DNA of 64,000 nucleotides, from positions 3,548 through 67,547 of the forward strand of contig JBDRHK010000015.1 in NCBI GenBank assembly GCA_043816965.1. The letters run 5' to 3'. Made by a program: the position numbers and the translations under genes. The stretch is from Candidatus Iainarchaeum sp. (GTDB lineage: Archaea > Iainarchaeota > Iainarchaeia > Iainarchaeales > JAFCCJ01). Under the pieces are notes generated by a model. The model saw only the letters and a program-made list of their open reading frames with translations, ran no database searches and had not been told where the DNA came from. Position 1 is the stretch's first letter; the number at the start of each line of letters is the position of its first letter. Positions 4,924-34,316 of this stretch are shown here, in pieces.

Positions 4924-4956
4924 AGCTTATTTGGAAAAGAAAAGAAGATAAATAAT

Positions 4957-4970
4957 TCGTCAATTGACGA
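4957..4970. promoter_or_regulatory. Perfect 14-bp palindrome TCGTCAATTGACGA abutting a TATA-like box upstream of gene 4561..4923
   Basis: Read directly. On the minus strand the order is palindrome, ttatttatc (4947-4955), then ATG at 4923 about 23 nt later. The same arrangement occurs at 34283 and 31935. Confidence 0.45.
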
Positions 4971-4973
4971 ATA

Positions 4974-5567
4974 TTAGATTTTCTCTATTTCGACAGGCCT
5001 GGGCCCCAAAAGGCCCCTTTTAAGCCTAAGCTTAACCCTTTCCCCTTTTTTGAATTTCAAGCCTGATTTTATATTGTGCTTTTTCGCAACAGTCCAGGAC
5101 CTAAGATCAAATTCTGTTTCCACAAGGCAGTTCTCCCCGTCACTCATAATAACCTTTCCAAAACCATAGTTTCTTCTGAAAACCACCCAGAAAATTGCCA
5201 TGAAAATAAATAGCAGAATAATAAGCGCAAAAAAGAAAAAGCTCTGGCCTGAAAATTCAGGGGCAAAAACCGGCCCAAGCCAGCTCAGTTGGGCAATAAT
5301 AATCAAACCGACAAAGAAGTAGAGGTATGCGAAAAAATCCTCCTTGAATTCCTCCCGCCCCTCTGTTGCAAGCTCATAAAGGAGAATAACAATCAGAATT
5401 AATTCCGCAATCAAAAATAATTCATAAGGAATCAAAAATTTGAGAAAAACCCCTGCAATAATAACAAGCAGCAGAATCTGCATCTTGTAAACAAGATATG
5501 TGCGGTGGCTGAAATTGCCGACATTTTTCTCCAGGAATTTTTCAATCAAGCCAATCAGCTCGGGCAA
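4974..5567 (-). CDS. Hypothetical membrane protein
   Basis: Four or five hydrophobic helices followed by a soluble basic C-terminal domain. No recognisable motif. Confidence 0.4.
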   Translation of the reverse strand: MPELIGLIEKFLEKNVGNFSHRTYLVYKMQILLLVIIAGVFLKFLIPYELFLIAELILIVILLYELATEGREEFKEDFFAYLYFFVGLIIIAQLSWLGPVFAPEFSGQSFFFFALIILLFIFMAIFWVVFRRNYGFGKVIMSDGENCLVETEFDLRSWTVAKKHNIKSGLKFKKGERVKLRLKRGLLGPRPVEIEKI

Positions 5568-5980
5568 TTAGTGCTAGAAGGAATATTGTCCCTATCTGTG
5601 CCGTTAATGCACACATGCACAGTCTCATATTTGCTCCTCAAAATAATCTCGTCCCGAAGATAATCTTTGAATGCGGTGGTGTCTAGGTTCATGCTGCCCC
5701 CGGAAAGAATTAAATCCAGCTTAATTGTGTCATCGCCTACAGTCTCAAAAAGTATTTCCTCAATGTACTCCATAGAATCAATCTGGCTCAGTTTGTCGAT
5801 TGTTTTTTCCTTTGCAATTATCAGCGCAATTGTTGAATCTTTTATGACCACGTAATTGGAAAGAATCATGGTAACCAAACCTATTACCGCCGCGAAAACG
5901 ATAATCAGCTCATAGCTGACCTGGCCGGAATTACTAAGCCAATTTGACAGTGGTTGTAGAACCATCTTTTTCAACCTCAA
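5555..5980 (-). CDS. Pilin-like protein (class III signal peptide)
   Basis: ...LSNSG/QVSYELIIVFAAVIGLVTMIL. Overlaps the upstream gene. Confidence 0.6.
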   Translation of the reverse strand: MRLKKMVLQPLSNWLSNSGQVSYELIIVFAAVIGLVTMILSNYVVIKDSTIALIIAKEKTIDKLSQIDSMEYIEEILFETVGDDTIKLDLILSGGSMNLDTTAFKDYLRDEIILRSKYETVHVCINGTDRDNIPSSTNCPS

Positions 5981-6488
5981 GAGTTACCACTATTCCGGCA
6001 TAATTATCCATATTGTCTATTTTTAATCCGCCTGAGCAGTTAACACTGCTACTATCTAATAATAAGTCAAACACCTTGGCACATTTTTCATTATCCCCAT
6101 CAATGTCATTAATGCAGGCAGACGGGGCCGAGTAAGCATTCAATAAAATCCCGTCCAGCGCAACCTGGAAGCAGATCCCATTCACGCAAGTTGCGCCAAT
6201 ATCGCTTAACTGGCAGGTTAGGATGGTGTTCCCAGGCACAAAAAGAGTAATGGTCCTTTTATTTTCCCCGGGAGCAACGCTCACAGCATCAATGGTATTT
6301 GCAAGCTTTTCCGCGGCAAATCTCGCCTGGCCAATCCTTGCGGTTTCCTTGCCGCTTGCGGCGGCAATTGTAAGCGAAGGGTTAACGACAGTCTGAATGA
6401 ACAGGGCAATAATCATCACAAGCATAATTATTTCAATAGAGGCCTGACCCCGCCTGCCTAAATTTTGAAAAAAGGAAATAGAACCCAT
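5934..6488 (-). CDS. Pilin-like protein (class III signal peptide)
   Basis: ...NLGRRG/QASIEIIMLVMIIALFIQ. The start overlaps the end of the peptidase gene. Confidence 0.6.
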   Translation of the reverse strand: MGSISFFQNLGRRGQASIEIIMLVMIIALFIQTVVNPSLTIAAASGKETARIGQARFAAEKLANTIDAVSVAPGENKRTITLFVPGNTILTCQLSDIGATCVNGICFQVALDGILLNAYSAPSACINDIDGDNEKCAKVFDLLLDSSSVNCSGGLKIDNMDNYAGIVVTLEVEKDGSTTTVKLA

Positions 6489-7669
6489 AAAACATCCCCT
6501 ATCAATTGAAGCAACAAATAACCAATCAATATTCCTGGCACAAATGCTGTTGTTCCCTTCACCTCTATCTTTTTCGGAATTAAGCCCTTATTCGCAAGTT
6601 CCTTAATCTCTTTTAATTGCTCCCCTGTAAGGCCGCCGGCGCTTGAGGAACTTGCAACAACCCTTGCCCCTGGCTTAATCGCCTGGTTAAGGGCATCCAA
6701 ATTATTATCCATTAACTGCTTTATAAGTGTTCCTATAGAGGCCCCTTCCAGAATCTCTATTTTTCCGCCCTTTTCAACAATGGTTTTTAGCGGAATCTCC
6801 CCCTCCTCCAGGTCCCTGACATCTTTCTCCATTCCCAAAAGCCTTGCCAATGCCTTTTTTGGCCTGTGGTGCACAACAATTTCAATTGTGAGAGTAATGG
6901 TGAGAATGATAACAAAAACTACGGCAAAACTAAATATTGCGCTTGGCACAGAAAGGTAGAGCGCGAAGGCCAACAGAATGGCCGCAAGGAATTTCTGCAG
7001 GAGATAGCTTATTTTTTTAAGCCCAAGCAAGCCAATCACTGTAACAATTGGCAGATGGAATATTTCAGGAACTCCCAGGAAAATAAGAAGGGTTGCTGTC
7101 CCAACAATCGCCGCAGTTGTTATAACAATGCCGTTAATTTTTCTTTTCACCAATGCAACAACAACCCCCTTCAAATTCATTTTCTTTATCATTTCCCTTC
7201 TATCAATCATGCGCTTTAATGTTATTGCAGTCACCCATGGGACCATTGAAATAATGCTGAAAACGAAAAGCGAAAAAGGGAAGATTGGCTCTGAAACAGA
7301 CGCAAAATTAAAAGTAATGCCGAGAAGTGAAAGGCTTTCTAAACCAATTAAATCCCTGAGGACACCATGGTTTACTGTGTTGATTGTGGCAAGCCCTGTC
7401 ATCAGCTTAACATCGCCCCCCGCCCATCCCCCTGCCTTGTAAAGGAGCAATGAGCCAACGGCGGTGGCGAAGGTTACGGCGCCGGTTACAATGATTATTG
7501 AAGGGTCATTCGCAAGCAGGGACCTGATTCCCTGCAGAATCAGCCCGCCAAAAATAAGTGAAAATGTGAGTTTATTGGAAACAATCCTTTCCCGTAAATC
7601 GGTAAATGTGGCGATAATAAGGGCGATTATTGAAATTATGAAGAAGAAAATAGGAAAGCTGATAGGCAT
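6458..7669 (-). CDS. A24-family prepilin/preflagellin peptidase (FlaK/PibD/EppA-like) with an extra ~105-aa soluble domain
   Basis: Two catalytic Asp contexts: TFTD(24)LRERIVSN and GGWAGGD(86)VKLM (GxGDxK). Multiple TM helices. A soluble segment at aa ~267-373 precedes the last TM helix. Confidence 0.8.
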   Translation of the reverse strand: MPISFPIFFFIISIIALIIATFTDLRERIVSNKLTFSLIFGGLILQGIRSLLANDPSIIIVTGAVTFATAVGSLLLYKAGGWAGGDVKLMTGLATINTVNHGVLRDLIGLESLSLLGITFNFASVSEPIFPFSLFVFSIISMVPWVTAITLKRMIDRREMIKKMNLKGVVVALVKRKINGIVITTAAIVGTATLLIFLGVPEIFHLPIVTVIGLLGLKKISYLLQKFLAAILLAFALYLSVPSAIFSFAVVFVIILTITLTIEIVVHHRPKKALARLLGMEKDVRDLEEGEIPLKTIVEKGGKIEILEGASIGTLIKQLMDNNLDALNQAIKPGARVVASSSSAGGLTGEQLKEIKELANKGLIPKKIEVKGTTAFVPGILIGYLLLQLIGDVLWVLFPFFKI

Positions 7670-7673
7670 GTTA

Positions 7674-7844
7674 TCAGCCCATCAGAGATTCAATAGTTTC
7701 CGACCTGAATGAAAGAATTTTTGCCTGCGCAACATTCGCAATCGAAGCCAAGTTCATGGTTACAACCGAAGCTACCAAAACCAGCACCAGCACAAAGCCG
7801 ATGCTGATAAGGTACTCCAATGAAACTTGTGCCCTATTGTTCAT
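7674..7844 (-). CDS. Small (56 aa) pilin with class III signal peptide, not in the ORF track
   Basis: Hand translation: MNNRA/QVSLEYLISIGFVLVLVLVASVVTMNLASIANVAQAKILSFRSETIESLMG*. 171 nt including the stop. Confidence 0.65.
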   Translation of the reverse strand: MNNRAQVSLEYLISIGFVLVLVLVASVVTMNLASIANVAQAKILSFRSETIESLMG

Positions 7845-7860
7845 GCTTTACACATCATTC

Positions 7861-8193
7861 TTAGCAATCTGTAAGTGCGGGAAGTGGTGTAGCATATTCT
7901 TTTGCAGAACAAACCTTATCTATAGTGTCCCAACAGCAACCAGCAGCGTAGTCTGCATTAGCAGGTGCGAAATCACCCAAAGCTTTGTCTGTTGCGTCAC
8001 CCAAACAGCCAGTGCCGCCTACAGCTCCCATAGTACCGCCATAAGTATTCAAACAGCTTACTTTCGCAGCACTAATTCTTGCCGGTTTGTCGTCACTTAT
8101 GGTTGTCAGCAATACTATAACCACCACAGCAACAAGCACAGCACCGCCAATCAGCAGCAGATACTCAAGTGCACCTTGTCCTTTTCTATCCAT
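7861..8193 (-). CDS. Candidate major pilin, cysteine-rich C-terminal domain
   Basis: MDRKG/QGALEYLLLIGGAVLVAVVVIVLL, with six Cys in the C-terminal domain. A near-perfect Shine-Dalgarno (minus-strand AAGGAGGATGA; tcctcc at 8201-8206) lies 7 nt before the ATG, with TATA-like boxes upstream. Confidence 0.75.
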   Translation of the reverse strand: MDRKGQGALEYLLLIGGAVLVAVVVIVLLTTISDDKPARISAAKVSCLNTYGGTMGAVGGTGCLGDATDKALGDFAPANADYAAGCCWDTIDKVCSAKEYATPLPALTDC

Positions 8194-8278
8194 ATGTTCA
8201 TCCTCCTTTTGTTGGTTATAAATATGATATAATCTATCTAAACATATCCATTCTAGTATTTAAACCTTCTTCCGGCAT

Positions 8279-8443
8279 TTATCCAGTACTTTCCTCAAGC
8301 GCTTCGCCTGAAGTATCCTGGAGCTCCCGGCCAAGTGTTTTTAGATAAAAACCAACTGCCGCTGCAACTGCCAGAACCCCCCCTAAAATAAGGAGCATTT
8401 CAAGCGAACTTTGCGCCCTTTCCTCAAAAATCAATCCTTTCAT
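8279..8443 (-). CDS. Small (54 aa) pilin-like protein with class III signal peptide, not in the ORF track
   Basis: Hand translation: MKGLIFEERA/QSSLEMLLILGGVLAVAAAVGFYLKTLGRELQDTSGEALEESTG*. The ATG overlaps the stop of 8440..9414. Confidence 0.6.
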   Translation of the reverse strand: MKGLIFEERAQSSLEMLLILGGVLAVAAAVGFYLKTLGRELQDTSGEALEESTG

Positions 8444-9414
8444 GAAATACCACCCATTATTGACCTTGAACCAAACAATACAACTGTAAAGCAGATGTAT
8501 GCCACTAATAAGAGGAGTGGGAAGTATATAATACTTTTGCTCATCTTTCCATCTCTCATAAGTGAAATCATTATGCTTGCCGCAAGGGTTTCTATAAGAA
8601 CATATATCTGGATAAGCAGGGTTATGTCCTCCCTTGCCTTATCAGCAGCTTTGATTGCGGCATCATCTGCAACACCCTGGGCCGCAAGTATTAGGAAGCT
8701 TACAACAGTTGAAATAAAACCAAAGATTGCGGGAGCAACCAATGAGCCTGCAGTTACTAAGAAGATTACCTGCAGGCCTGTTTTTGACCTTCTTTCCTTG
8801 TTTATTCTATGTGTGGATCTGACATCTTCCGCAATCTGCTCAAGGATATCTGCCAATCCAGCACCTGCCTTGACAGAGTCAACAATTATTGTGACAGTTC
8901 TCTGTATAAGCCTTGAATCAATCTTGGAAAGAACTTTCAGCGAATTCTCGAAGTTTTCCCCCTCCTCAAGCTTCCTCAGGACATAGCCCATCTCCATTTT
9001 CAGTGCCCCATATTCGGATGCGGCAACTTCCCTCAGGGCATATTCATATGTTCCCCCGGCCCTCAATGTGTCGGCCATCTGCCTCAGCGCATCAGGCAGG
9101 GTTTCCTCAATTTCATCAATCCTTTTAAGTGCGTTCAGCAGGGGAAAGCCGATTGTAAGGTCAATGGCAACTATAAAAACTACTAATGGCAGGCCAGCCA
9201 GAACGCTCGTAAGAGAATCCATTTCAAGATAGTTTATCAGGGCATCAGAACCTGCCCAGGAACCGACAACAAGAAAAATCGACAAAAAAATGGAAAACAA
9301 AATCCAAAGGAAAGGGTCAAACCTGAATCCGCTCCATGCAAGCATTTTTGAGTAATATTTCAAAAAGCCTATGCTGTTCAGGACAGGAATCCTTTCCATC
9401 AGTCTCAATGCCAT
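8440..9414 (-). CDS. Type II secretion system F-domain membrane protein (TadC/FlaJ-like)
   Basis: T2SSF-like cytoplasmic helical domain (LPDALRQMADTLRAGGTYEYALREVA...AGAGLADILEQIAEDV) flanked by TM helices. Confidence 0.75.
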   Translation of the reverse strand: MALRLMERIPVLNSIGFLKYYSKMLAWSGFRFDPFLWILFSIFLSIFLVVGSWAGSDALINYLEMDSLTSVLAGLPLVVFIVAIDLTIGFPLLNALKRIDEIEETLPDALRQMADTLRAGGTYEYALREVAASEYGALKMEMGYVLRKLEEGENFENSLKVLSKIDSRLIQRTVTIIVDSVKAGAGLADILEQIAEDVRSTHRINKERRSKTGLQVIFLVTAGSLVAPAIFGFISTVVSFLILAAQGVADDAAIKAADKAREDITLLIQIYVLIETLAASIMISLMRDGKMSKSIIYFPLLLLVAYICFTVVLFGSRSIMGGIS

Positions 9415-9418
9415 AACA

Positions 9419-10570
9419 TCACACCGTCGGTTGCGCTATTTTTAGGTAATAAACAAGTAAAATCATTATCCCTGGCATAAGCACCAGGTAGAATATTCCC
9501 ATCATTGTGGGGTTAAGCCCAAGGCCGCCAACATTCGGCAGTGGGGAGTTTGTTATTCCCCCAATAACGGCAACAAACACAGGAATAACAATTGCCATAA
9601 AGATAAATATCACCCCGAAGAAATTCATCTTCTCCCCGAAATCCCTCATCGCAATCCTGAGCTCAAAAGAAACATCCTCGGCAATCTTGTTCATTATGTC
9701 CGAGAGGTTTCCCCCTGTCTTAAGCGCACGTATTATGTGGAGCAATGCGCTTCTTAAGGATTTGGATTCTGTCCTCAGTGCAAAGTGCCTTAGGGCAACT
9801 TTAGTGTCTGTTCCCTCCTCAACCTCGGAAATGGTCCTTGAAAATTCCTCTGAAAGGACGCCATAATCAGAAACAGCGATTGCCTGCAGTGTTTTGTAAA
9901 GCCCTATTCCTGCCTTTAATTCTGTTGACATATGCCTGAGGGCAAAGGGAAGCTCAACACTGATTTCCTTACCCCTCTTCATTGCCTTACTTTTTGGGTT
10001 GAGGAAGCAGATAATGGCTGCAAATAGGAACACAAAAATTGCAATAATCGGCGAAAGCAGCAAAATTAAGTTGTTGTCAAGGAACCAGCCAAGTCCTGCA
10101 AACAAAAGCAGCACAAAGAATGCAGCAATCACTGAAACAGAGGTTGAAATCGCAAGATATTGCTGGATGCTGTATTTCATGTTTGCGCTGTAAAGGTAAT
10201 AGCCTAACTCCCCCGCCCCCGGCATTCTTCTCAGAATCTTTGAAATGAACTTTAAGGGAAGCTCAAACAAAAGATAAACCCTGCCCAAGCTCCTGATTGT
10301 GGGGGAACTGAATTCAGTTAAATCCTCAATTCCCTGCACCCTTATTTTTGACAGCTGGCTTTCGGCAATTATTCCCCGCAGTTCGCTTAATCTGCCGCCA
10401 ACTTCCTCAAATTCAACTCCCTGATCCCGATATTTTTTTTTCATCCTGGTTACAATCTTGTCCACCGCATCAAGGTCGATTGATTCCTCATCCTTTTCAA
10501 TCGCGCCGAACTTTTTGGCCGTTTTCTTTTTTTCTTCAACCTGTTTTCTCAGATCATCAAGTTCAGGCAT
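9419..10570 (-). CDS. Type II secretion system F-domain membrane protein (TadB/FlaJ-like)
   Basis: [26 protein letters not shown]...[16 protein letters not shown] plus TM helices. Paired with 8440..9414 like TadB/TadC. Confidence 0.75.
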
Positions 10571-13500
10571 ATTCTCCCCTCTTCTTTAGCAGGTGGTCCT
10601 GGCAGGCTTTTGATACCTCTTCTATAGACCTTATCTTCTTGTCAACAAGGCTCTTAAGAAACCTTTCCCTGTCCTTAAGTTCGGCATCAATCTGCTTTTT
10701 TGACAGTCCGGTGTATTTTTCAAGTGTCCTGAGGTATGCGCTGGAGAAATTGGACCGAATGAGTTGATCAGTTATTGCATCCCTTTCGAAAAGGGTTTGG
10801 GTTGTTGATTTGCCCTCCAAGACCCCGCCAACCTCCGCCATCTCGGTAATTCTTCTAATGGTGCCTTTTTTCCTGTCATGAAGCCTGTGTTCTATAAGCA
10901 CGAAATCAAGCCCTGAAAGCATCATCTTAGGGACATTCATCGGAGGGCTTGTGACCCTTACTAGTGCCTCTTGGGGAGAGTTTGCGTGGACAGTCCCCAT
11001 GCAATTTGAAACAAACAAGCCATTGGCAATGTAATTGTGGTTATCTTTAACAGTCAGGTCGTAAACATATCCCTCGAATTCCCGGTCCTTCACTTCAACT
11101 ATTTCCTCGAACCTGAAATCAGATTCAACTAATTTTAAAAGTTCCTTTCCAATGGAATTTTCGGAAGTTATCATTGCAATTTTTTCCAGTTGCCCTCTCG
11201 ACGGATTTCTTTGGTTAGTTTCGTATGCCTCAATCGTTGACCTTGTTTTTGCATTCATAAAAGATGCCAATTCTGTTTGCGTTAAGTAACAATCGCTCCT
11301 CGCCCTTTTGATTAAACCGGAAATTTTCGGGAACAAATCCATCGAATTTTTTGAAACTTTCAATAGTCCTGCTAGTTTTTGCCTTTTTGCAGAATGCCTG
11401 AAGCCGATTTTCCCCTGGTATTTTTCAAGGTTATCCTTACCATAAATTGAAATTCTGTAGTAAGGGCCAATATTTCCTTTGCCGTCTTTTTCCTGAATAT
11501 TTGTTGAGGAGTGAATCCCGAATCTCTGGAGAATCATCGGAAGTTTTTTTGCCAGGTCGGGGTTTGATGTTGAGAATTGGATTGAGTTTGAATGCAGATT
11601 CACATGGGCCTCAGCATCGAAAAACCCGCATAATAATTCCCCGATATTTGACTCACTTGAACTTAAAGCCTTTTTCGTTATTTTGAATTTTTTTGTTTTA
11701 TTCCCTAGAGGAATATCATACTCCTCTTCAAAAAGTTTAACCAATTTTTTGTCAAAAACATTTACTCTGGAATAGTTTCCATAGTTTTTGACCGATACCT
11801 TGTTTTTGGTGGTTTTTCCAATCCCGTCCGCAAAATTTTCAATGACTGATTTTTCGTTGTTCACAAACTGAATCCCTTCGCTGTGAATGTGCCCATCTCC
11901 ATAAATCAATCCTGCCAAGTAGGGATGTTTTATTTTTTCCGTGGCACTAATCGTGATTGCCTTTGGAAATGCAATGAAATCCCCCCCCTTTGCCTCTTCA
12001 GAATTTATTTCCTGAATGCCATTATGTATCCTGTAAATCGGATGGTCTTTTGTCAAACAAATGCGTTTTCCTGAGCGGGTTTTTATTATTTTCATCATTT
12101 CTTTTGTTTTCTTCTTCCAGACCCGCGTAATTGGCCTGTTTTCAATTTTCAATGTCTTTTTGTTAAAGCTTGGGACAAGCAGTTCTTCACTTAATTCAAC
12201 AAATTTAAATTCTCCGTCGCTTATTGGACATGTTTCATTAAATTGCCTTTCAACAAAATCCCCAATTGCCTCAATATTCCCGTCTGAAAACTGAATTAAT
12301 GTTTCTCCATTTAATGCGCCTTCATGGCCGGTATTCATGGCGGTAAAAAGCGAGAATGCCTCATCATGCCTTATCTCACCAACTATAATTCTGTCAGGCC
12401 TCATCCTGAGGGAATTTTTAGTCAAAATATCCATTGTTATTTCCCCAGTTCCCTCCATTCCCGGGGGCCTTGATTCAAGCCTTATCCAGTGTTTTAAGGG
12501 AAGGTTCAGTTCTGCAGTGTCCTCAATTGAAACAATCCTTTCAGAAGCAGGAATAAATGAGGCAAGAACATTCAAAGTTGTTGTTTTCCCTGAACCGGTT
12601 CCTCCCGCAATCAGAATGTTTGCGGGCTTTACCCTCAATCCCTCAACACAAAGCCAGAGGAATGCAGCGGTTTCAAGGTTTACTGTATTGAGGTTCAGCA
12701 AATCAACTATTGACAACGGGTCTTCCCTGAATTTCCTTATAGTGAGGGTTGCACCACTTACAGATATGGGGGGGATGGTCGCATTAACCCTGCTCCCATC
12801 AGGGAGTCTTGCATCCAGCAAGGGGGCGGAAATATCAACCCTTCTTCCCACCTGCCTTCCTATCCTGTTTACGAGGTCCTCTATCTCGGACTCGGAAAAG
12901 AATTCAATATTGGTTTTCATCATTTCATATTCCCTGTGGAAAACATAAACCGGGCGTTTTGCGCCAATAACCATAATTTCCTCAAGCCTGTCATCCTTTA
13001 TCAGGGAATCAATAAGCCCATATCCGACCATCTCCCTCACAACAGCATCTGCATAAAACTCAAATCTTCTAGTTGGAATCCTTAACTCTTTCGAGGTCTG
13101 CAGGATTTCCATTATTTTCTGCTGGTAAACACTTCTCCTCTCTTCAGGGTCACGGATTTTGTAGGGGATTATGCTGATTATTCTTGTTGCAGCTTCCTTT
13201 ATTGTGTTGATTATTGTTTTATCCCCCTTCGTCGGCCTTGGCACAGGGGTATAGTAGTACATCAGGGGTTGGCCAGGAATTTCATATATTGTCGTATTTC
13301 CGTAAGATGCAACCTTAATTTTCTTTACATTTTCCATCTCCTTTTCGATTGTTGATTTATCCGGTTCTTCCTCTCCTTCTTTGGCGGGAATTCCCTCCAC
13401 CGAGGCAGGCCCCTTAGGCACTTCAGGGGATTTTCTCCTCTCAAAAATGTTCATAATCCCCTCCTTCCTGCTCTCAATTTCAGGAGTCTCCTCTTTTACC

Positions 13501-13682
13501 GGGGCAGCCACTGGCTCTTGGCGGGCCAAAAATTCATCTGCAGAAGGACCATTGGCTATAGGTTGCGAAGTTGCAGGGCCAGTTTCTATAGTAGACCCCT
13601 CTACCTTAATCCCCTTTTTTTCCTTTGCCTTTCTAATCAGATCATCCAAAGGGTTAGACATATATATCCCATTAATCAACAA
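10563..13682 (-). CDS. Type IV pilus/secretion ATPase (VirB11/FlaI/KlbA family) interrupted by an intein
   Basis: Walker [33 protein letters not shown]. The conserved AMNTGHEG...CMGTVHANS box is split by 438 aa. The extein alone would be ~601 aa with a low-complexity acidic N-terminal extension. Confidence 0.9.
11004..12317 (-). mobile_element. Intein (438 aa) with LAGLIDADG homing endonuclease and HTH insert; Ala1 ... Ser-Asn / Cys+1
   Basis: Boundaries by hand: GHEG|[10 protein letters not shown]... and ...[13 protein letters not shown]|CMGTVHAN. Block [18 protein letters not shown] motifs [13 protein letters not shown] and [13 protein letters not shown]. Visibly more AT-rich than the flanking extein. 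Confidence 0.85.
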
Positions 13683-13827
13683 CGTTTCTTTTATTTAATG
13701 GTTTTGGCACGGCTATTTCCCTCCGGGAACTTGCACCCTTCCGGGCACAAGCGAGCTCCGTGCACACGGCGGCTCCCTACGGGGAACCTTGTTCGCTGCG
13801 TTCGCCAATTTGAATTATAAAATCAGC

Positions 13828-15732: not shown

Positions 15733-15855
15733 ATTCACCACTATAATGCTTACTATGAATTCATTAATAAATAATTTAATATAATAAGCCCATAAACTGA
15801 ATTTTACCAATTTCGCGCAGAAGCAGATTAAAGCACTTCTTTCCCAAAATTTTAT

Positions 15856-17705: not shown

Positions 17706-17782
17706 CGCTTATTCACTTTAGTGATTGACTATAATTAGTTTTTTAATTGTATTAGTTAACGCCGTTATTTTTCCACCATCCC

Positions 17783-18388: not shown

Positions 18389-18484
18389 GAAAATTATTTT
18401 ATCCGCCTCACTTTGGAGAAGCCCCCTAAAATAATTAACAATGCTGGCTGCATCATAATGCGAAAATTTTTCAAAGAATCTTTT

Positions 18485-18811: not shown

Positions 18812-18813
18812 AC

Positions 18814-20737: not shown

Positions 20738-20775
20738 TTTATAACCCTCATGCAGCCAGATTTTTTGGGTAAAAT

Positions 20776-22020: not shown

Positions 22021-22055
22021 ATATTTAATCACTTCCCAATTCAATAATTCAGTGG

Positions 22056-24413: not shown

Positions 24414-24427
24414 TTATTTAACTGTAT

Positions 24428-24997
24428 TTGCAACAATTCTTAACTATTGCCAGGCAAAAGTGGATTTTCTTTGAAAAGCAAACTTTTTATTTGTTTTCGC
24501 TTAGAATTACTAATGGTGCTAATTTGGAAATAACCCTTGATAAGACCGACCATAAGATTATTCAGTGCCTTCTTGAGGATGGGCGCATGAGTTTCAGCAG
24601 CATAGCAAAAGACGTCCAGCTTACCGATGTTGCAATAAAGAAAAGGGTTGAAAGGCTTAAGAGAAAGGGCGTGATAAATTCAATAACTGCCGATTTGAAC
24701 CTCAAGGTTTTGGGCTATGAAAATCCGATTTTTGTGCAAATCCGCTCCGAAATGGGCAAGACAAAAAATTTGGTTAAGAGGCTTTCTGATTTTGATTATG
24801 TGATAGAACTCTACCAAATTCTGGGCGAGTATAATCTCCTTGCGAAGTTAGTGCTTCCGGACATTGATTCTGCCGAGAAATTCATTAACCAGCTTGGGGT
24901 TTTGGATGGGATTCTTGACATAAAAACCCAGATGATTCTTAGCGAACTGAAGAAAAGCAATTCTCTCCCCATATTCTCCTTCCAGAAAAAACTTTGA
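24428..24997 (+). CDS. Lrp/AsnC family transcriptional regulator
   Basis: LDKTDHKIIQCLLEDGRMSFSSIAKDVQLTDVAIKKRVERLKRKGVI (HTH_AsnC) plus a RAM-like C-domain. The true start is probably downstream (in-frame TTG at 24524, about 30 nt after TATA-like ctttttatt). Confidence 0.8.
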   Translation: MQQFLTIARQKWIFFEKQTFYLFSLRITNGANLEITLDKTDHKIIQCLLEDGRMSFSSIAKDVQLTDVAIKKRVERLKRKGVINSITADLNLKVLGYENPIFVQIRSEMGKTKNLVKRLSDFDYVIELYQILGEYNLLAKLVLPDIDSAEKFINQLGVLDGILDIKTQMILSELKKSNSLPIFSFQKKL

Positions 24998-25092
24998 TTT
25001 CAATTACGCTTATGGCGCCCTGTATTTTTATGCTTTTTGATGTAAGAAAATCTAATGTTGATTTGTTGATGGGTTTTTGTTGGTGAGCTGAC

Positions 25093-27234: not shown

Positions 27235-27240
27235 AAGTTA

Positions 27241-27320
27241 GGGAACGGGGTTCAAAATAAACCAATTAGCTTGGTGAGCCTAACCCCGTCCCTTGGTTTT
27301 TATTTTTTTGATTTTTTTTA
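27241..27320 (+). terminator. Hairpin plus oligo-T tract downstream of topA
   Basis: gggaacggggtt (27241-27252) pairs with aaccccgtccc (27282-27292, one bulge), followed by ttggtttttatttttttgatttttttta. Confidence 0.45.
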
Positions 27321-27400
27321 CTTTTTAGGATTGGATCCCCCCAATTTCTTGTACGATATAATTACTGCTTATCCACCTTAAAAGTATTTAGTAGTTTTAG

Positions 27401-28006
27401 TTGTACAAAAAAGTACATTTAATTGCCTTTCGTTATACAATATGTTATAATTTACAGGTGGTAATTATAGCATCCAATAAACAAATAGATGACGAGATAA
27501 GGCTGAATATCCTTAATGCCCTGCTAGGGAAGGGGACAGTGCAGCCAAACATAAGGCGGCTGCAAAAAATCACCGGCTACCACAAAGCAACGATAAAGGC
27601 AAGCCTTGATTTTCTGGAAAAAGAAGGGGTTCTTGAAGGCTATGGCCCAAAGGTTGGCTTTAAAAAATTCGGCTACAACCTTGAGGCAAAGGTAATGCTG
27701 CAGATTGACAGTTCAGAAAAGGACATATTCAAAAAATTCCTGAAGCAGGCAGAGGGTGATCCCCACCTCTACAGGATGACGGCAATAATTGGGTCAGGCA
27801 ACCTGAACATTATGACCAACCACATCTATCCTGATGTGGAATCCTACCACAAAAATGTTCAGGAAAGATATTATGAGTCCATTCCTGGAATTTACAAGCT
27901 GATAAAGGATCGGCAAATATTTTATGCCACCGAACCTTATTACAAAAACGTTTCAAGGACAAGTTCAGTGATAGAGCTTATAAGGAAGGAAAAGGGATTC
28001 ACGTGA
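27401..28006 (+). CDS. Winged-helix transcriptional regulator with Lrp-like C-terminal domain
   Basis: LNILNALLGKGTVQPNIRRLQKITGYHKATIKASLDFLEKEGVLEGY. The start is likely GTG 27458. The stop overlaps the next gene start (GTGA). Confidence 0.5.
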   Translation: MYKKVHLIAFRYTICYNLQVVIIASNKQIDDEIRLNILNALLGKGTVQPNIRRLQKITGYHKATIKASLDFLEKEGVLEGYGPKVGFKKFGYNLEAKVMLQIDSSEKDIFKKFLKQAEGDPHLYRMTAIIGSGNLNIMTNHIYPDVESYHKNVQERYYESIPGIYKLIKDRQIFYATEPYYKNVSRTSSVIELIRKEKGFT

Positions 28007-28809
28007 AGGTAATAATAAACCTGAAAAAATCCCTGCAGGAGAATGCCAGCCTCTATTTTGATGCCGGGAAGAAATCCAAAAGAAAGCTAATTGGTTTGGA
28101 AAAGGCCCTGCTTAGTTCTGAGAAAAGGAAAAGTGAGCTGGAAGAGAAGGCAGCAAGGCTTGGGGATGCAAAGGCAATAATGAAAAGGAAGAAGAATTGG
28201 TTTGAAAAATTCCACTGGTGCAATTCAAGCGATGGTTTCCTCATCATTGGGGGGAGGGATGCAAAGAGCAATGAGATTGTGGTAAAGAGGCATATGGAAA
28301 AAGATGACCTTTACTTCCATGCGGAAATCCAGGGAGCCCCTCATGTAATAGTTAAGGCAGATGGGAAAAAGGTAAGTGAGGCGACAAAAAAAGAGGCCGC
28401 AGAATTTGCCGCCGCCTTCTCAAAGGCATGGAGGGAAAAAATACCCGCAATTGATGTTTATTCTGTTTCCCCGGAACAGGTCAGCAAAAACGCCCCAAGC
28501 GGCGAGGCATTGGGCACAGGGGCATTCATGATTTATGGGGAAAGGGAGTATTTCAAGAAAACAGCGCTTGCCTTTGCAACTGGCCTAATTGAGGAAGAAG
28601 GTTCATTTATCGTAATTTCCGGGCCTGAATCTGCGGTGAAAAAGCAGACAAAACACTTTCTAAGGCTTAAACAAGGCCCTTTGGAGAAAGGGGCTGCGGC
28701 AAAGAAAATTAAGCAGATTCTTGAGAGGAAGATTGGAGGGAAAAATCCGGTTGATTTGGATGAGATTAATTCCATGCTCCCGAATGGCGGAATTGAAATC
28801 AGGGAATAG
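28003..28809 (+). CDS. NFACT-R (DUF814) domain protein, short CCDC25-like form of the Rqc2/NEMF family
   Basis: A coiled-coil N-part, then [54 protein letters not shown], the hallmark DUF814 core. Confidence 0.75.
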
Positions 28810-28852
28810 ATATATAAGTATATTTCGGCTAATTGGATTTAGAGGGAGTTCA

Positions 28853-31210
28853 TTGATAGATAAATTGAAGGAAATTGTTTTGAGGGTCCAGGACCCTGAC
28901 CCAAGCCATGTGGGAAGAAATATTATTACCCTAGATAGGCAGTCCAAGGAAAAATTAGGGGTTACATCAGGAGACATAGTCGAGCTGGAAGGCTCAAGAA
29001 AAACCGCGGCAGTCATCTGGCCTGCAAGGCAGGAGGATGAGGGAAAGGACATTATTAGGATGGACAACCTCATAAGGCACAACTCGGGCATAGGTTTGGG
29101 GGAAAGAGTAAGGGTAAGGAGGGCGGCTTATACTGATGCAAAAAGGGTTGTTCTTGCGCCGACACAGGAGGTAAGGATTATTGCCTCAGGATATGACCGG
29201 ATATTGAAGAAAAATTTTATCGGCAGGCCATTGACAAAAGGGGACAATGTCTGGATTTCAGTTTTCGGCTCTGGCTTTGTTTATTCTGTTATTGACACAA
29301 ACCCGCGGGGAATAGTGAAGATTACTGATTTCACCCAATTTGTCCTGAAGCAGGAACCTGTCAAGGATGATTTGGCTGGAATTCCACGCATTGCTTATGA
29401 GGACATTGGCGGATTGGAGGCCCAGGTGCAAAAAGTCAGGGAAATGATAGAGCTTCCTATGCGCCATCCGGAAATTTTCAATAAGCTGGGCATTGCCCCC
29501 CCAAAAGGGGTTTTGCTGCATGGCCCCCCGGGAACCGGAAAAACCCTTTTGGCAAAAGCGGTTGCAAACGAAACCCAGGCACACTTTATTTCTGTTGCCT
29601 CGCCCTCAATAATGAGTAAATTTGTCGGGGAAGCGGAAGAGAGAATAAGGAAACATTTTAAGGATGCCGAGAAAAATGCCCCATCAATAATTTTCTTTGA
29701 TGAGATTGATGCAATTGCCCCAAAAAGGGATGAAGTGGTCGGCGAGGTTGAGAGAAGGGTTGTTGCCCAGATACTTTCCGCAATGGATGGCATGGAGGCA
29801 AGGGGAAATGTGATTGTAATTGCCGCCACAAACAGGCTTAATTCACTGGATGAGGCTTTGCGAAGGCCAGGAAGGTTTGACAGGGAGATTGAAATAGGGG
29901 TGCCTGATGTTACCGGAAGAAAAAAGATTATGCAGATTCACACAAGGGGAATGCCAATCGCTCCGCCATTGGAAAAGGAAAGCATTGACCATGCCCTTAC
30001 TAAAATAAAGGAAAATTATGCGTCTGAAACCACTAAAGAATTGCTTAAAAAGCTTTCAGAAACAAAAACAATGGATGAAAAGAGAAAGTTAATGTCTTCC
30101 TTGGATGAAAAATCCAGAAGCGATTTATCAAACCTGCTGGTATCTGTTTTTTTGGATGATTTGGCAGCCATAACCTATGGTTTTGTCGGGGCTGATTTGG
30201 AGGCCCTTGCAAAAGAGGCTGCGATGAAAGCCCTGAGAAGGTATCTTCCGAAAATACATCTGGAAGACGAAACAATCCCTCCCGAGGTATTGGAATCCCT
30301 TGAGGTAAACAGGAATGATTTCATGAATGCGCTTAAGGAGGTTCAGCCCTCGGCCCTGAGAGAGGTCGCAATAGAAATCCCCAATGTCAGGTGGAAGGAT
30401 ATAGGTGGGTTGAAAGAGGTTAAGCAGGAACTGCAACAGGCGGTTGAATGGCCGCTGAAGAAACCTGAAGCTTTCAAAAAATTAGGGATATCCCCGCCGA
30501 GGGGGGTTTTGCTTTACGGGCCGCCAGGATGCGGAAAAACAATTCTCGCGAAAGCGGTCGCAACAGAGAGTGAGGCAAATTTCATTTCAATCAAGGGCCC
30601 GCAGCTGATTTCAATGTGGGTCGGCGAGAGCGAAAAAGGAATCCGGAAGGTCTTCCATCGCGCAAGGCAGGTTTCCCCGTCAATAATTTTCTTTGATGAG
30701 ATTGATTCCATAGCCTCAAGGAGGGGAGGCAATCATGACGCAGGAACAGGGGAAAGGGTTGTTAACCAGCTGCTTACTGAATTGGACGGAATTGAAAACC
30801 TCAAAGATGTTGTTTTCATAGCCGCCACAAACAGGCCTGATTTGCTTGACCCTGGCCTGATTAGGCCTGGGAGGATTGATAAAGTTATAAGGGTCACCGC
30901 ACCCGACAAGGAGACTAGGCTTGCGATTCTTAAGGTGCATACAAAAGATGTCCCCTTGGCCAAGGACATATCCCTTGAGGAATTGGCAGATAAGACTGAA
31001 GGCTATAGCGGAGCCGATTTGGAAGGCGTGATAAAAGAGGCTGCGCTAATAGCGCTGCAGGAATCCAATTTCAAGGCAATTGTGGTCGATAAAAAGCATA
31101 TTGATGCCGCCCTTCTTAAAATAGTTCCAAGCATCAGCCAGGAAACAGCAGACGCATATGCTGCTTTCAGGACCCAGATGGCGGAATTCAAGCCAAGTTA
31201 TGCCAGATAG
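28853..31210 (+). CDS. cdc48: CDC48/VCP-like AAA+ ATPase (two AAA domains)
   Basis: N-domain ([21 protein letters not shown]...GDIVELEG). D1 [16 protein letters not shown] and D2 [16 protein letters not shown]. Likely TTG start at 28853 after agagggag and a TATA-like box at 28811-28825. The track start 28721 overlaps the previous gene. Ends with TAG. Confidence 0.9.
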
Positions 31211-31216
31211 GCTGTT

Positions 31217-31837
31217 TCAGAATATTGGCTGCAGGATTAAAAAATAAATCCACGGGGCAAACACACCTATTGCGGCAATCGCCATTGCCACCCCCCAAAC
31301 AGGAATGCTCCATGTAAAAACCTTGGAGCCATCCAAAGGCCCAATAGGGAGAAGATTGAACAGGGCGAGGAAGAAATTTATCATTGCCGAATAAGAGAAA
31401 ATGTCTGACACCAAATCCGTCGGCTTAAACACGGCAAGCAGGATAAGGAACATGAATGCCACAACAATATTTGTGGCAGCACCGGCAACAGAAATTAGCC
31501 CATTTTGCTCCCTTGTTATATGGCTGCCAGATATGTAAACTGCGCCAGGTGCGGCAAACAAAAACCTTCCAAAAGTTATCAGCGGAAGGAGTATTGTGAA
31601 AAGCAATCCTGTTGTCCATGCCCTGTATTCTGCGTTAAGCCCATAATATTTGGCAACCTGCCTGTGCGCAAGCTCATGCAAAATAAAGCCAGTTCCAACC
31701 CCGACCAGTGCGATGGGAAGTTTTTCCCCAAAATCACCAAAATTCAGAAATTCCGACAGCACCCATGCAAACCCAAGGCTGATGGTTAACCATGAAATGA
31801 TTAAATCGTTTCTTTCCCTGGATTCCAAAACAACCAC
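31217..31837 (-). CDS. M50 (site-2 protease) family membrane metalloprotease
   Basis: HELAHRQVAKYYG (HExxH) and NLLPIGPLDGSKV (NxxPxxxLDG) within TM helices. Confidence 0.8.
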   Translation of the reverse strand: MVVLESRERNDLIISWLTISLGFAWVLSEFLNFGDFGEKLPIALVGVGTGFILHELAHRQVAKYYGLNAEYRAWTTGLLFTILLPLITFGRFLFAAPGAVYISGSHITREQNGLISVAGAATNIVVAFMFLILLAVFKPTDLVSDIFSYSAMINFFLALFNLLPIGPLDGSKVFTWSIPVWGVAMAIAAIGVFAPWIYFLILQPIF

Positions 31838-31934
31838 CTAAAAGCAGTAATTATTTGTTATCGGCATCACTTAAATAAGCTTTAGGTCTGTTTATCGCCC
31901 CTTTTTGCGTACTAATTTCTTTAAATATAAATAT

Positions 31935-31946
31935 CGTCAATCAACG
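31935..31946 (+). promoter_or_regulatory. Degenerate copy (CGTCAATCAACG) of the CGTCAATTGACG motif abutting the TATA box of the second pilin-like cluster
   Basis: atatcgtcaatcaacgtaatatttaag, with ATG 31982 about 24 nt after the TATA-like aatatttaag. Confidence 0.35.
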
Positions 31947-31981
31947 TAATATTTAAGTTATTTTCCCAGCACCATTATTGC

Positions 31982-32554
31982 ATGAATCCCCGAGGAATTT
32001 TCTCCTTCATATTGGTTTTGCTCTTCATCCAGCTAATTGTTGTTTCTGCAGGAATCAATTCCTCAACCAGCAGGGAAATTGGGGAAGCCATAAACACCCT
32101 CATTGAACTTGAAAACTCCTCCCTGAAAAGGGCCGAGCTGGAGCAGAATCTGGATTTCCTGATAAAAAAGGCTGTTGAGAGGGAGGTTTTCTTTGGAAAT
32201 TCCGAGCCTGAGTTGATTGAGCAGAAACTAAACCATGAAATTGATTCCTTTGTTTCCCAAACTGAAAGCATTTACGGTGCAAGCCCGAAAATGGAATTCA
32301 ATTTAGTTCAGGATTTCCAAAGATTGAAAATTCCCCAAAAAAAGGCCCGCAGGAAACTGGGAAAAGGGGAGCTGCACAACTACTTCAATGTAATGGTTCT
32401 GAACCTTGAGGAAAATATTTTCATCGTGGAATTTGATTATTCCGGGGGCCTGATGAAAGACCATCGCTTCTTTGCGGTAATTTCCTCTCCAAAAACCGAG
32501 CAGTTGTTTGAGATTCCGGCAGGATACACGCAAATCATTACGGTGGTTAGATGA
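31982..32554 (+). CDS. Pilin-like protein (class III signal peptide-like N-terminus)
   Basis: MNPRG/IFSFILVLLFIQLIVVSAG. Confidence 0.5.
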   Translation: MNPRGIFSFILVLLFIQLIVVSAGINSSTSREIGEAINTLIELENSSLKRAELEQNLDFLIKKAVEREVFFGNSEPELIEQKLNHEIDSFVSQTESIYGASPKMEFNLVQDFQRLKIPQKKARRKLGKGELHNYFNVMVLNLEENIFIVEFDYSGGLMKDHRFFAVISSPKTEQLFEIPAGYTQIITVVR

Positions 32555-32892
32555 TAAGTATTGAGGCGATGATTTGCTTCCTTGTGTTTGTAATACTTCT
32601 CGGAATTATTGCCGCAGGAATTGGGGAACAGATTCAATTGTTTGATTTTTCATCAGGCGCATTCATTGCAAGAAATGAATCAGAAAAATGCGCGGTTCTT
32701 GTTGATGCCCTCTATTCGAATGGAGGGGGGACACTGAATGAAAACAAATTTGGCTGCTTTATTTCGGAAAACGGGATTTCCTCAAAGTTTGGGGATTGGG
32801 AAAAGGCATCCCTCACTGTAAGCAATTCTGCAGTGCAGGTTGAGGGGGATTTAAGCATGATTGAGGTTAATGGGGATGGCCATTATAGGTGA
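32551..32892 (+). CDS. Pilin-like small protein (very short leader)
   Basis: MISIEAMICFLVFVILLGIIAAGI: x-S-x-E followed by a hydrophobic helix. ATGA overlap with the upstream gene. Confidence 0.4.
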   Translation: MISIEAMICFLVFVILLGIIAAGIGEQIQLFDFSSGAFIARNESEKCAVLVDALYSNGGGTLNENKFGCFISENGISSKFGDWEKASLTVSNSAVQVEGDLSMIEVNGDGHYR

Positions 32893-33361
32893 GAGGGGCC
32901 TTATATTCAGCCTGGATTTGGCTGTGGCGGTGATGGTTATGTTTGCGATTGCCTTTCTCATACTCCTGCATTCAGCCTCACTAATCGAAAATAACGCTTC
33001 CCTCCAAAACAGGCTCTCTTTGGAAAGAAAGGCAATCTATCTTGCGGATTCCCTTGTAAAAAACCGGAGTCCTGAAAATCCGCTTTTAGGGTCGGCCAGT
33101 TACAATCCTCTCCTGAAAAGGGTGGAAACAAACAAAATTGATTATTCACTACTCAAATCAATTTCAGATAAAAATTTTGGCCTTAATGGAATTTCAATTT
33201 CACTTTTGGAAATCGAATACAAAAACAGGGAAAAGGAAAAAATAATTGAAAACCCCCTTTCTGGCGAATGCATCTCAGTTGAAAGATTTGTCCTGATGCA
33301 AAAAATCTTGCCTGAAAAGGCATTGTTAAGGCTGGTGGTGTGTGATGCATCTCTCAACTGA
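32861..33361 (+). CDS. Pilin-like protein (class III signal peptide)
   Basis: ...IIGERG/LIFSLDLAVAVMVMFAIAFLIL. Confidence 0.55.
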   Translation: MRLMGMAIIGERGLIFSLDLAVAVMVMFAIAFLILLHSASLIENNASLQNRLSLERKAIYLADSLVKNRSPENPLLGSASYNPLLKRVETNKIDYSLLKSISDKNFGLNGISISLLEIEYKNREKEKIIENPLSGECISVERFVLMQKILPEKALLRLVVCDASLN

Positions 33362-33686
33362 GGCCCTATTTTCCCTCTTTCTGCTTTGCTCAGTCCTGCT
33401 GCTCCCAGCCTCCTTTTCCAGCCCATCCTATTCCGAGGTGCTGCTTGTGCAGAAGGGGAATGACCTATTGGCGGTATGGATGATGCAGCGCTCATTTTCG
33501 CAGAGGGAAATCCTTTCTGACATCCAATTGGTTTTTCCCATGCATGCTGTTCTTGTTGAAATTGACGGAAGTGAATACTGGCACAATAAAAGAAATTTTG
33601 CGGGAATGGACGCAACGTCCTCATCAATATTTTTTCTTGATGATTCCCTCCAGCTGAAAGAATTAAGGCTCACCATTTACCACTGA
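33342..33686 (+). CDS. Pilin-like small protein (short leader)
   Basis: MMHLSTEALFSLFLLCSVLLL. Confidence 0.4.
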   Translation: MMHLSTEALFSLFLLCSVLLLPASFSSPSYSEVLLVQKGNDLLAVWMMQRSFSQREILSDIQLVFPMHAVLVEIDGSEYWHNKRNFAGMDATSSSIFFLDDSLQLKELRLTIYH

Positions 33687-34076
33687 AACTTTCCCGGAAT
33701 TTTTTTCCAGTTTCAGCCTGATTTCATTTTCGGCCCTGAAAGGTAAAAGGGAAAAATTTGCATTCACTTCCCTCTCGAGTTTCTTCCCTCTCCCAAGTTC
33801 TGAACTTTCAACTATCAGGATTAATTTCATGTTCTCGTTTTTGAGTTCCCATTGATTTATCACGTTAGAGGAAATTTGGAGGGAACTTCCATCACCAAGG
33901 ACATTCATCCTCTCTATCCCCAATTTTAAATCATCAATAAAGTGCTCGGCATTCCTCACATCCAGGCCAAACTTGGCGGCCTGGACAGTATTGTTTATCG
34001 CAGGAACAAGGAAAAGCAGGCAGGAAAAGAATGCGGCCAGAAGTATGATATATTCCAGGCTTAGTTGTCCGCGCAT
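33663..34076 (-). CDS. Pilin-like protein (class III signal peptide)
   Basis: MRG/QLSLEYIILLAAFFSCLLFLV. Confidence 0.6.
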   Translation of the reverse strand: MRGQLSLEYIILLAAFFSCLLFLVPAINNTVQAAKFGLDVRNAEHFIDDLKLGIERMNVLGDGSSLQISSNVINQWELKNENMKLILIVESSELGRGKKLEREVNANFSLLPFRAENEIRLKLEKNSGKVSVVNGEP

Positions 34077-34247
34077 TCAGATATCCTCAATCTGCTCGAA
34101 TATTTCGCTTGTTTTGTTGTCGATTACCTTTGCCCCCTCCTCGGTTGTTTTCTGGAGCTGGCTTACGAGAAGCAAAACTATCGCAACAACCGCGGCAAGG
34201 ACAATAATCATTTCCACAGAAATCTGCGCTTTTTCCTCATAAAACAT
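34077..34247 (-). CDS. Small (56 aa) pilin with class III signal peptide, not in the ORF track
   Basis: Hand translation: MFYEEKA/QISVEMIIVLAAVVAIVLLLVSQLQKTTEEGAKVIDNKTSEIFEQIEDI*. The stop abuts the ATG of 33663..34076. Confidence 0.6.
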   Translation of the reverse strand: MFYEEKAQISVEMIIVLAAVVAIVLLLVSQLQKTTEEGAKVIDNKTSEIFEQIEDI

Positions 34248-34282
34248 AAGGAAATGATGAAGGGAAGTTATTTTAAATATTA

Positions 34283-34294
34283 CGTCAATTGACG
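34283..34294. promoter_or_regulatory. Palindrome CGTCAATTGACG abutting the TATA box of small-pilin gene 34077..34247
   Basis: On the minus strand: atattcgtcaattgacgtaatatttaaaa, then 23 nt, then ATG 34247. Confidence 0.45.
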
Positions 34295-34316
34295 AATATA
34301 ATCAATTGCCCTTTTT

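Follow-up and report, generated by a model that had tools for sequence, protein, structure and literature searches.

The boxes of the archaeal regulator MsvR reportedly overlap core promoter elements. They read TTCGTA-N4-TACGAA in Methanothermobacter and TTCG-N7-9-CGAA in Methanosarcina acetivorans, and are bound by a homodimer (PMC3729527). ArnR and ArnR1 of Sulfolobus acidocaldarius are membrane-bound helix-turn-helix (HTH) regulators of the archaellum and of other type IV pilus genes, and the ArnR boxes, TCGAC-N5-GTCGA, are contained in a flaB promoter fragment running from -43 to -84 (PMC6396743). The ArnR family has been reported in Sulfolobales and Desulfurococcales only (PMC4858521). 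Lrp-type sites are imperfect inverted repeats of 13-17 bp with an AT-rich centre, and EarA, which controls a type IV filament operon at the fla promoter, recognizes repeated 6-mers, TACATA (PMC6396743). Membrane-bound and pfam12840 regulators have been described near type IV pilus genes in a study that gives no cis element for DPANN (Makarova et al. 2016, PMC4858521), and literature searches, including ones on DPANN and Diapherotrites pilin promoters, turned up no cis-regulatory element or regulon described for DPANN. The element treated here is a palindrome, or dyad, found at three promoters of pilus-related genes in a stretch of 64,000 nucleotides (the window) from Candidatus Iainarchaeum sp. 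(assembly GCA_043816965.1, contig JBDRHK010000015.1, positions 3,548 to 67,547). The three sites are probably copies of one operator, to which a dimeric winged-helix factor is predicted to bind, co-regulating pilus operons in the Iainarchaeota.

The initial annotation of the window gave the coordinates and sequences of all three sites correctly. It also placed them, as found here, before an OB-fold/DUF112 gene block (site i) and before both arms of a second pilin locus, namely the pilin arm (site ii) and the p190 arm (site iii). The sites and their TATA-like boxes are the following.

4956-4971, no strand: dyad site i, TTCGTCAATTGACGAA, a perfect 16-bp palindrome; the 12-mer is 4958-4969
34281-34296, no strand: dyad site ii, in gene sense TTCGTCAATTGACGTA; the 12-mer is 34283-34294
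31933-31948, no strand: dyad site iii, ATCGTCAATCAACGTA; the 12-mer variant CGTCAATCAACG is 31935-31946
4948-4955, minus strand: TATA-like box of site i, TTATTTAT in gene sense, adjoining dyad i, with its centre ~28 nt before the ATG at 4923
34273-34280, minus strand: TATA-like box of the pilin arm (site ii), ATATTTAA
31949-31956, plus strand: TATA-like box of the p190 arm (site iii), ATATTTAA

Read in the sense of the downstream gene, the palindrome is at all three sites followed by a 10-nt (A/T)AWTATTTAW stretch containing the TATA-like octamer, and only 1-2 nt separate the proximal half-site from the box, placing it directly 5' of TATA. The claim that the box abuts the palindrome with matching geometry thus holds, the ATG (4923, 34247, and 31982) following the end of the 12-mer after 34 nt at site i and 35 nt at sites ii and iii. 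Counted from the 16-bp dyad, the ATG of the OB-fold gene is 32 nt away at site i, which itself follows the stop codon of a DUF2101 gene by 3 nt, and the gap is 33 nt at both other sites. From the end of the octamer to the ATG the distance is 24-25 nt; the figure of 23-24 nt given earlier needs correction, while the common geometry stands. We infer from archaeal promoter geometry that the box at 4948-4955 functions as a TATA box. A terminator hairpin of the DUF2101 gene was considered for site i and rejected; the loopless 12-mer palindrome folds poorly, and sites ii and iii lack a co-directional upstream gene.

The exact 12-mer CGTCAATTGACG is present in two copies in the window, compared to 0.00 expected from 100 dinucleotide shuffles. 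Three matches are found when up to two mismatches are allowed, which is not significant alone (shuffle mean 1.46; 20 of the 100 shuffles reach three), and site iii therefore rests on its context: the flank TAATATTTAA in common, an ATG that is equally far away, and the fact that the site recurs in other genomes. In addition, sites ii and iii have more than 25 nt in common, TATA box included. The relaxed dyad WTCG-N8-CGWA matches the three promoters and nothing else in the window, and TTCG-N8-CGAA is exact at site i and has one mismatch at each of sites ii and iii. The three-site pattern is real, and chance is excluded as its source. Site iii had earlier been called a degenerate copy. It is not a decayed one, since CAATCAACG is the commonest variant, accounting for 15 of the 27 archaeal matches in the scan described below.

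A genome-wide pattern search and motif enrichment statistics had been proposed as checks in the initial annotation. The search made here used the pattern TCGTCAATYRACGWAWTATTT, TATA part included, on a collection of 596 Gb with one genome per species. Archaea account for 27 matches, found in 22 loci that without exception bear the label Iainarchaeum, Diapherotrites, or uncultured archaeon, and bacteria for five single matches, where the chance level is ~4 by our own estimate. The archaeal matches are mainly found before pilin and p190-family genes (nine small pilins and ten members of the p190 family), and further targets are one T2SSE ATPase, one M50 protease, and one CBM96/Big_7 surface protein, a few cases being ambiguous. 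For genes with an assignable start, the ATG mostly follows the palindrome by 35+/-1 nt. Viral contigs contained no match to the motif. Both arms of the orthologous loci carry the motif at the ATG distance seen in the window, for example in comparison locus L001 (TCGTCAATCAACGAAATATTTAA) and in the AR10 genome (TTCGTCAATTGTCGAA and TTCGTCAATTGACGTA).

An unbiased set was obtained by fetching 80 metagenome pilin loci by protein and not by motif, which yielded 78 distinct upstream regions. TTCG-N8-CGAA with at most one mismatch is found in 57 of these 78 regions vs. 4.3% of random 100-nt windows. The spacing is specific as well; in ~720 kb of related loci 70 sites have the N8 spacing, while each of the other spacings from N4 to N12 has 3-11, with ~9 expected. 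For the p190-type genes, 22 of 28 distinct upstream dyads have a gap of 32-34 nt to the start codon, gene starts in the comparison loci being assigned by simple rules. Upstream of the OB-fold gene there is exactly one dyad, equally placed, in L009 and in L124-L127, with a TctA identity of 39-90%. Hence the dyad is retained before the pilin, p190, and OB/TctA operons with proteins that are only 39-86% identical and flanks that have diverged, and the information content is highest at the dyad and at the TATA box, dropping to nil in the flanks. The palindrome is shared, as was claimed, yet its conserved core is the dyad TTCG-N8-CGAA and not the whole 12-mer. The pilin loci of the P0089 lineage (L010-L016, 50% identity) have neither the dyad nor an ArsR gene, and thus mark the edge of the range of the motif.

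These comparisons also bear on the notion that the promoters share nothing but ancestry, being recent duplicates in which the palindrome is a passenger. Such an origin would fit the likeness of sites ii and iii, which extends over more than 25 nt and takes in the TATA box, as well as the nearly identical flanks of L009 and the window. However, the dyad is kept at three promoter classes at 39-50% protein identity, where the intergenic DNA is unalignable, and the enrichment is specific for the N8 spacing, making this explanation the least probable of those considered.

One copy of the motif is found in a different setting. In L035 (6632-7289, JAGVWE010000003.1) it is situated +65 nt before a gene encoding a 75-aa protein, followed by a PIN-domain protein (PF01850). 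The 75-aa protein has no Pfam match and was read by eye as antitoxin-like. The pair looks like VapBC rather than a pilus gene, and the motif may be present here by chance or mark a genuine additional target.

The dyad has been described above as directly adjoining the TATA box, which is where the B recognition element (BRE) is read by TFB. One explanation is therefore that TFB, or a TFB paralogue dedicated to the pili, recognizes the palindrome as an alternative or extended form of the BRE. In the window the dyad abuts the TATA box exactly where a BRE would be placed, and the half-site next to the box, ACGAA(A), is similar to the canonical euryarchaeal BRE, CGAAA. TFIIB homologues are also found in many archaeal type IV pilus loci (Makarova et al. 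2016, PMC4858521). In other lineages, however, the dyad is situated ~10 nt farther upstream of TATA than in the window, corresponding to about one helical turn. In the group B and C lineages a TATA box of the form GCTTTTTAW follows it after 10-15 nt. Three classes of dyad-to-ATG distance are seen (32-35, 40-44, and 50-53 nt), several members of the last class having a Shine-Dalgarno leader. In the displaced arrangement the pilin and M50 promoters diverge with the dyad halfway between them, and each has its own TATA box, 11-13 nt from a dyad end. The TATA-distal half of the dyad is moreover better conserved than the proximal one, and neither a TFIIB-domain protein nor, with it, a dedicated TFB paralogue was found among the ~65 window proteins scanned. 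A BRE has a fixed position and is asymmetric. Since it cannot shift a helical turn away from TATA, and since the dyad is two-fold symmetric, the dyad would be a separate operator and the BRE explanation is quite improbable. In the Iainarchaeum-type lineage this operator appears to be fused to the TATA box, with its proximal half merely occupying the BRE position. The initial annotation had left the choice between an operator for a dimeric regulator and an extended promoter; the lineage-wide conservation, the N8 specificity, and the ~10-nt shift favor the former. Its placement of the palindrome at the BRE is right for the window, but is a feature of the lineage of the window alone.

The operator would then be a two-fold symmetric element with the core TTCG-N8-CGAA and the local form (T)TCGTCAAT-YR-ACG(A/T)A, through which a dimeric winged-helix factor would exert joint control of the pilus-related operons. 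The transcripts from the three promoters are assumed to be leaderless, because the TATA centre is found ~28 nt before the ATG, in keeping with the ~26-28 nt of a leaderless archaeal promoter, there is no Shine-Dalgarno-like sequence, and this pattern is common for first genes. A TATA-like hexamer 27-34 nt before the start is found for 18 of 40 first genes in the window and a Shine-Dalgarno-like sequence for 9 of the 40, whereas 12 of 23 operon-internal genes have a Shine-Dalgarno-like sequence. If transcription starts at the ATG or 1-2 nt before it, the dyad would span approximately -49 to -34, and its TATA-proximal half (ACGAA or ACGTA) would fall where TFB reads the BRE. A dimer bound at -49 to -34 would be expected to touch or displace TFB, affecting TBP/TFB assembly at the three promoters together.

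Just upstream of the BRE is the usual place of archaeal activators. We lean slightly toward the factor being a recruiter or activator, because the site is found just upstream of the BRE in most lineages and because its displacement keeps the helical phase, which counts more for protein-protein contact than for occlusion. For the lineage of the window, repression by blocking access to the BRE is almost equally likely.

Two regulators encoded in the window are candidates for binding the operator.

35898-36611, minus strand: ArsR-family candidate regulator (ArsR237), with a winged helix at residues ~10-90 followed by two hydrophobic transmembrane (TM) segments; the gene points toward the pilin cassette
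24428-24997, plus strand: Lrp/AsnC regulator (AsnC189), the alternative candidate; in the AR10 clade its orthologue immediately precedes the pilin dyad

ArsR237 matches PF01022 (HTH_5) at residues 20-64 (E 6.9e-10, 39.1 bits vs. a cut-off of 22). Its sequence matches in PDB are ArsR-family chains only, and its scores are under the NCBIfam family cut-offs. The hydrophobic stretches, as read from the translation, cover residues ~93-120 and ~207-231 and have an acidic stretch between them. Only HTH-type matches were obtained in Pfam, where HAMP was not found. Against the MsvR model the DNA-binding domain scores weakly, with 27.9 bits vs. a cut-off of 220, the match covering the N-terminal part only. 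Homologues of this ArsR-TM protein are encoded beside the pilin cassette, pointing in, in 36 loci, ~26 of them distinct. Their recognition helix, P[ST][IV]KQH, is invariant across lineages whose dyads vary on the inside yet keep TTCG and CGAA. The most likely putative binder is thus this neighbouring membrane-anchored protein, as supported by the synteny and the invariant helix, with a predicted probability that falls a little short of even.

An otherwise genuine operator might instead be bound by the Lrp/AsnC regulator. Its orthologues (70-79% identity) are encoded directly upstream of the pilin dyad and co-oriented with it in the AR10 clade (L003-L008, L066, L094, and L110), and the local sequence TTCGTCAATTGACGAA, with the centre CAATTG, fits the Lrp-type repeats of 13-17 bp with an AT-rich centre (PMC6396743). 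The dyads of group C, such as TTCGTCTTTCGCCGAA, do however not have an AT-rich symmetric centre. In the window the AsnC gene is paired with an ATP-cone gene ~7 kb from the cassette, and since this pair moved as a unit in AR10, the adjacency there may stem from one rearrangement. It is furthermore seen in one clade, compared to ~26 distinct loci for ArsR-TM. The AsnC protein is accordingly regarded as an unlikely binder, and a factor unlinked to the locus is predicted with the probability that remains after these two.

Several points weigh against an operator read by the adjacent ArsR-type factor. The AR10 clade has no adjacent ArsR-TM gene, the AsnC gene being found at the ArsR position. Several lineages of groups B and C have neither an adjacent ArsR-TM nor another regulator; the gene found there has an N-terminus that was read by eye, with no domain search, as PheRS-alpha-like. 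Within the window, no WTCG-N8-CGWA is found near 36612-36728, upstream of ArsR237, or near the AsnC189 gene, and the autoregulation typical of these families is therefore not seen. A site overlapping the BRE would fit repression and an upstream site activation, so that one factor would have to act in opposite geometry at orthologous promoters. Finally, the comparison loci were ascertained via the pilin, TctA, or the motif itself, and the pattern used for scanning the genome collection contained the TATA part.

The genes downstream of the three sites are as follows.

2603-4923, minus strand: operon of site i, encoding the four proteins listed next
4561-4923, minus strand: OB-fold membrane protein (PF01336)
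3378-4568, minus strand: TctA/DUF112 permease (PF01970)
3016-3354, minus strand: pilin-like protein, 112 aa
2603-3022, minus strand: JAB/MPN protein
31982-33686, plus strand: p190 arm (site iii), four pilin-like or minor-pilin-like genes encoding 190, 113, 166, and 114 aa
33663-34247, minus strand: pilin arm (site ii), encoding the two proteins listed next
34077-34247, minus strand: class III signal pilin, 56 aa
33663-34076, minus strand: pilin-like protein, 137 aa

The operon of site i is surrounded by a type IV pilus locus encoding an A24 prepilin peptidase, two T2SSF proteins, and an intein-containing T2SSE ATPase, and its gene order is repeated in L009 and L124-L127. In the same genomes the membrane-anchored OB-fold protein, of a nucleic-acid-binding type, and the TctA-like permease are conserved with their own dyad promoter within the pilus locus. 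A role for this pair in nucleic-acid uptake is conceivable. The gene encoding a cofactor-independent phosphoglycerate mutase (1365-2582) is found within the co-directional string of pilus genes, between the JAB gene and two pilin-like genes. This placement is repeated in L124 (6316-7515), a genome with 46% TctA identity.

The four genes of the p190 arm converge on the gene pair of site ii. Their proteins have N-termini resembling class III signal peptides, and homologues are syntenic in more than 25 loci. An exact-sequence look-up gave no record for the 56-aa pilin or for the OB-fold protein, and homologues were used instead. The small pilin has many close homologues, as found by homology search and alignment, and is unusually conserved for a pilin, with 20 positions invariant among 30 homologues of 66-93% identity. 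After cleavage of the signal it would be scarcely more than one hydrophobic helix and a short charged tail.

A few other features of the window and its relatives were noted. Intein or homing-endonuclease domains are found within the pilus T2SSE ATPase (10563-13682; Intein_splicing, LAGLIDADG_3, and HTH_3) and within the Obg-like GTPase (41101-43560; LAGLIDADG_3). LonB is seemingly split, an N-terminal AAA open reading frame (ORF; 52532-53554) being separated from a Lon_C ORF (55727-57148) by an unassigned ORF of 358 aa. The CDC48 homologue in L008 (8704-9687) is intein-bearing. A second promoter-like block, GGGTTTCGGAAG(G/T)(C/A)ATAAATACC, is found at 34323-34346 and 34769-34792, before the two genes between the cassette and the ArsR gene. 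The 103-aa membrane protein starting at 34368 and the pilin-like gene at 3016-3354 have GGCATAAATA..AGTTTGGGCTTATTYGT..ATGGAT in common, covering the upstream region and the gene start (34347-34359 compared with 3344-3356 on the minus strand).

The conserved gene order around the cassette is CDC48, M50, dyad, pilin-p137 converging with p114-p166-p113-p190, second dyad, and the ArsR gene pointing in. The M50 gene in the window is the following.

31217-31837, minus strand: M50 (site-2-protease-type) membrane metalloprotease, with HELAH and NxxPxxxLDG motifs

In the 88 fetched loci the M50 gene adjoins the small pilin almost everywhere, including the distant P0089 lineage that is free of the dyad, and in many lineages M50 and pilin are transcribed divergently around a single common dyad. 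This association points to a functional connection of the protease with the pilin system. As would be expected for a module of intramembrane proteolysis, the M50 motifs are present and the arrangement of M50, cassette, and ArsR-TM is widely conserved, and the dyad might be the DNA end of an Iainarchaeota membrane-to-promoter module in which ArsR-TM and M50 act, by tethering or proteolysis, on a surface regulon. The regulon would comprise the small pilin, minor pilins, the OB-fold/TctA pair with its possible part in nucleic-acid uptake, and surface adhesins, with a co-regulated M50 on one side of the cassette and the two-pass ArsR-type factor on the other. M50 does however accompany the pilin also in lineages that have no adjacent ArsR-TM, and such a module is considered rather doubtful.

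The orientation of the cassette relative to the M50 gene varies among genomes. It is inverted relative to M50 and ArsR in different genomes, as noted when the window is compared with L001, L029, L036, and L042 and with L003, L018, L033, L034, and L043. In L039 (JAFCCJ010000020.1; flanks 80-85% identical) both dyad promoters are kept, while the interior of the cassette, corresponding to 31973-34257 of the window, has been replaced by ~4.5 kb from ~25 nt past each TATA-like box, near the positions of the start codons in the window. By eye, the replacement was read as containing an ORF for an IS6/SWIM-like transposase and small wHTH-like or AbrB-like genes. An ORF-free inverted repeat, CACGGTTCCYTTGCATTYYCAGCTCA...TGTTTGCAAGGTCGGCTGATTTT, follows each promoter (2298-2420 and 6770-6888) and is unique among the fetched loci. 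As a small RNA this repeat has no Rfam match and a fold no better than shuffled sequence (z = +0.85 and -0.54), and no match to it was found in viral contigs. The varying orientation and the L039 replacement could be taken to mean that the inward-facing copies at 31933-31948 and 34281-34296 are inverted-repeat recombination sites that invert or exchange the cassette. Inversions are indeed expected if inward-facing promoter copies recombine, but expression would stay unchanged, and rare homologous recombination between repeats of ~30 bp explains them equally well. Site i and its orthologues, on the other hand, stand alone in a co-directional gene string, no recombinase is conserved nearby in the fetched loci, and the strict 32-35 nt to the start codons as well as the fusion to TATA indicate transcription. 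Dedicated recombination sites are thus very improbable.

Pili of DPANN archaea are thought to mediate attachment to the host, and we know of no genetic system for studying them. The proposed operator ties together, in one concrete hypothesis, three operons related to pili, a membrane-anchored candidate regulator, and an intramembrane protease encoded nearby. Because its placement differs among lineages, being on the BRE in some and a helical turn farther upstream in others, the lineages constitute a natural experiment that bears on how archaeal regulators switch between recruiting and excluding TFB. If the membrane-to-promoter module is real, it would govern machinery for contact between the DPANN cell and its host, and the shift of the operator by one turn onto the BRE would mark a changed engagement between the factor and TFB.

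Compared with the systems described at the outset, the outer tetranucleotides and the 8-bp spacing of the dyad are identical to those of the MsvR boxes, and the motif TTCG-N7-9-CGAA is found exactly at site i, with N8 specifically enriched. MsvR has a V4R domain and conserved cysteines, both absent from ArsR237, and is not membrane-anchored as this candidate is predicted to be. It controls an oxidative stress regulon in methanogens, while the dyad is found at pilus genes in a DPANN archaeon, and MsvR has a box at its own promoter, unlike the candidate regulator in the window. Membership of the MsvR family was rejected, since a V4R domain is lacking, the organism does not belong to the methanogens, and the promoter of the regulator itself carries no site; the score of 27.9 bits is also far from the cut-off of 220. 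The resemblance would thus be one of mechanism and not of membership.

Dimers of the ArsR/SmtB family read dyad operators. ArsR237 has the HTH_5 domain in common with the winged-helix dimers of this kind (HlyU, SdpR, and Phr-type), but is a distant member, under the NCBIfam cut-offs, and its membrane anchor is atypical. The Lrp-family regulators (Ptr2, LrpA, and Ss-LrpB) and EarA act next to BRE and TATA, as the dyad would, but the Lrp consensus has no TTCG and CGAA ends like those conserved in the dyad. ArnR and ArsR237 both have an N-terminal HTH domain and two transmembrane segments, those of ArsR237 being read from the translation, and both systems have inverted-repeat boxes upstream of the core promoter of type IV filament genes. 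They nevertheless belong to different protein families, ArsR237 being of the ArsR/HTH_5 type with no detected HAMP or sensor domain. The ArnR boxes are also found two per promoter with another sequence and spacing, compared to one dyad per promoter, here fused to TATA. ArnR/ArnR1 therefore appears to be the closest functional analogue, and the MsvR box the closest sequence analogue of the site. Operators of pilus regulons are already a known kind, and what seems unusual here is the fusion to TATA and the phase-preserving shift among lineages.

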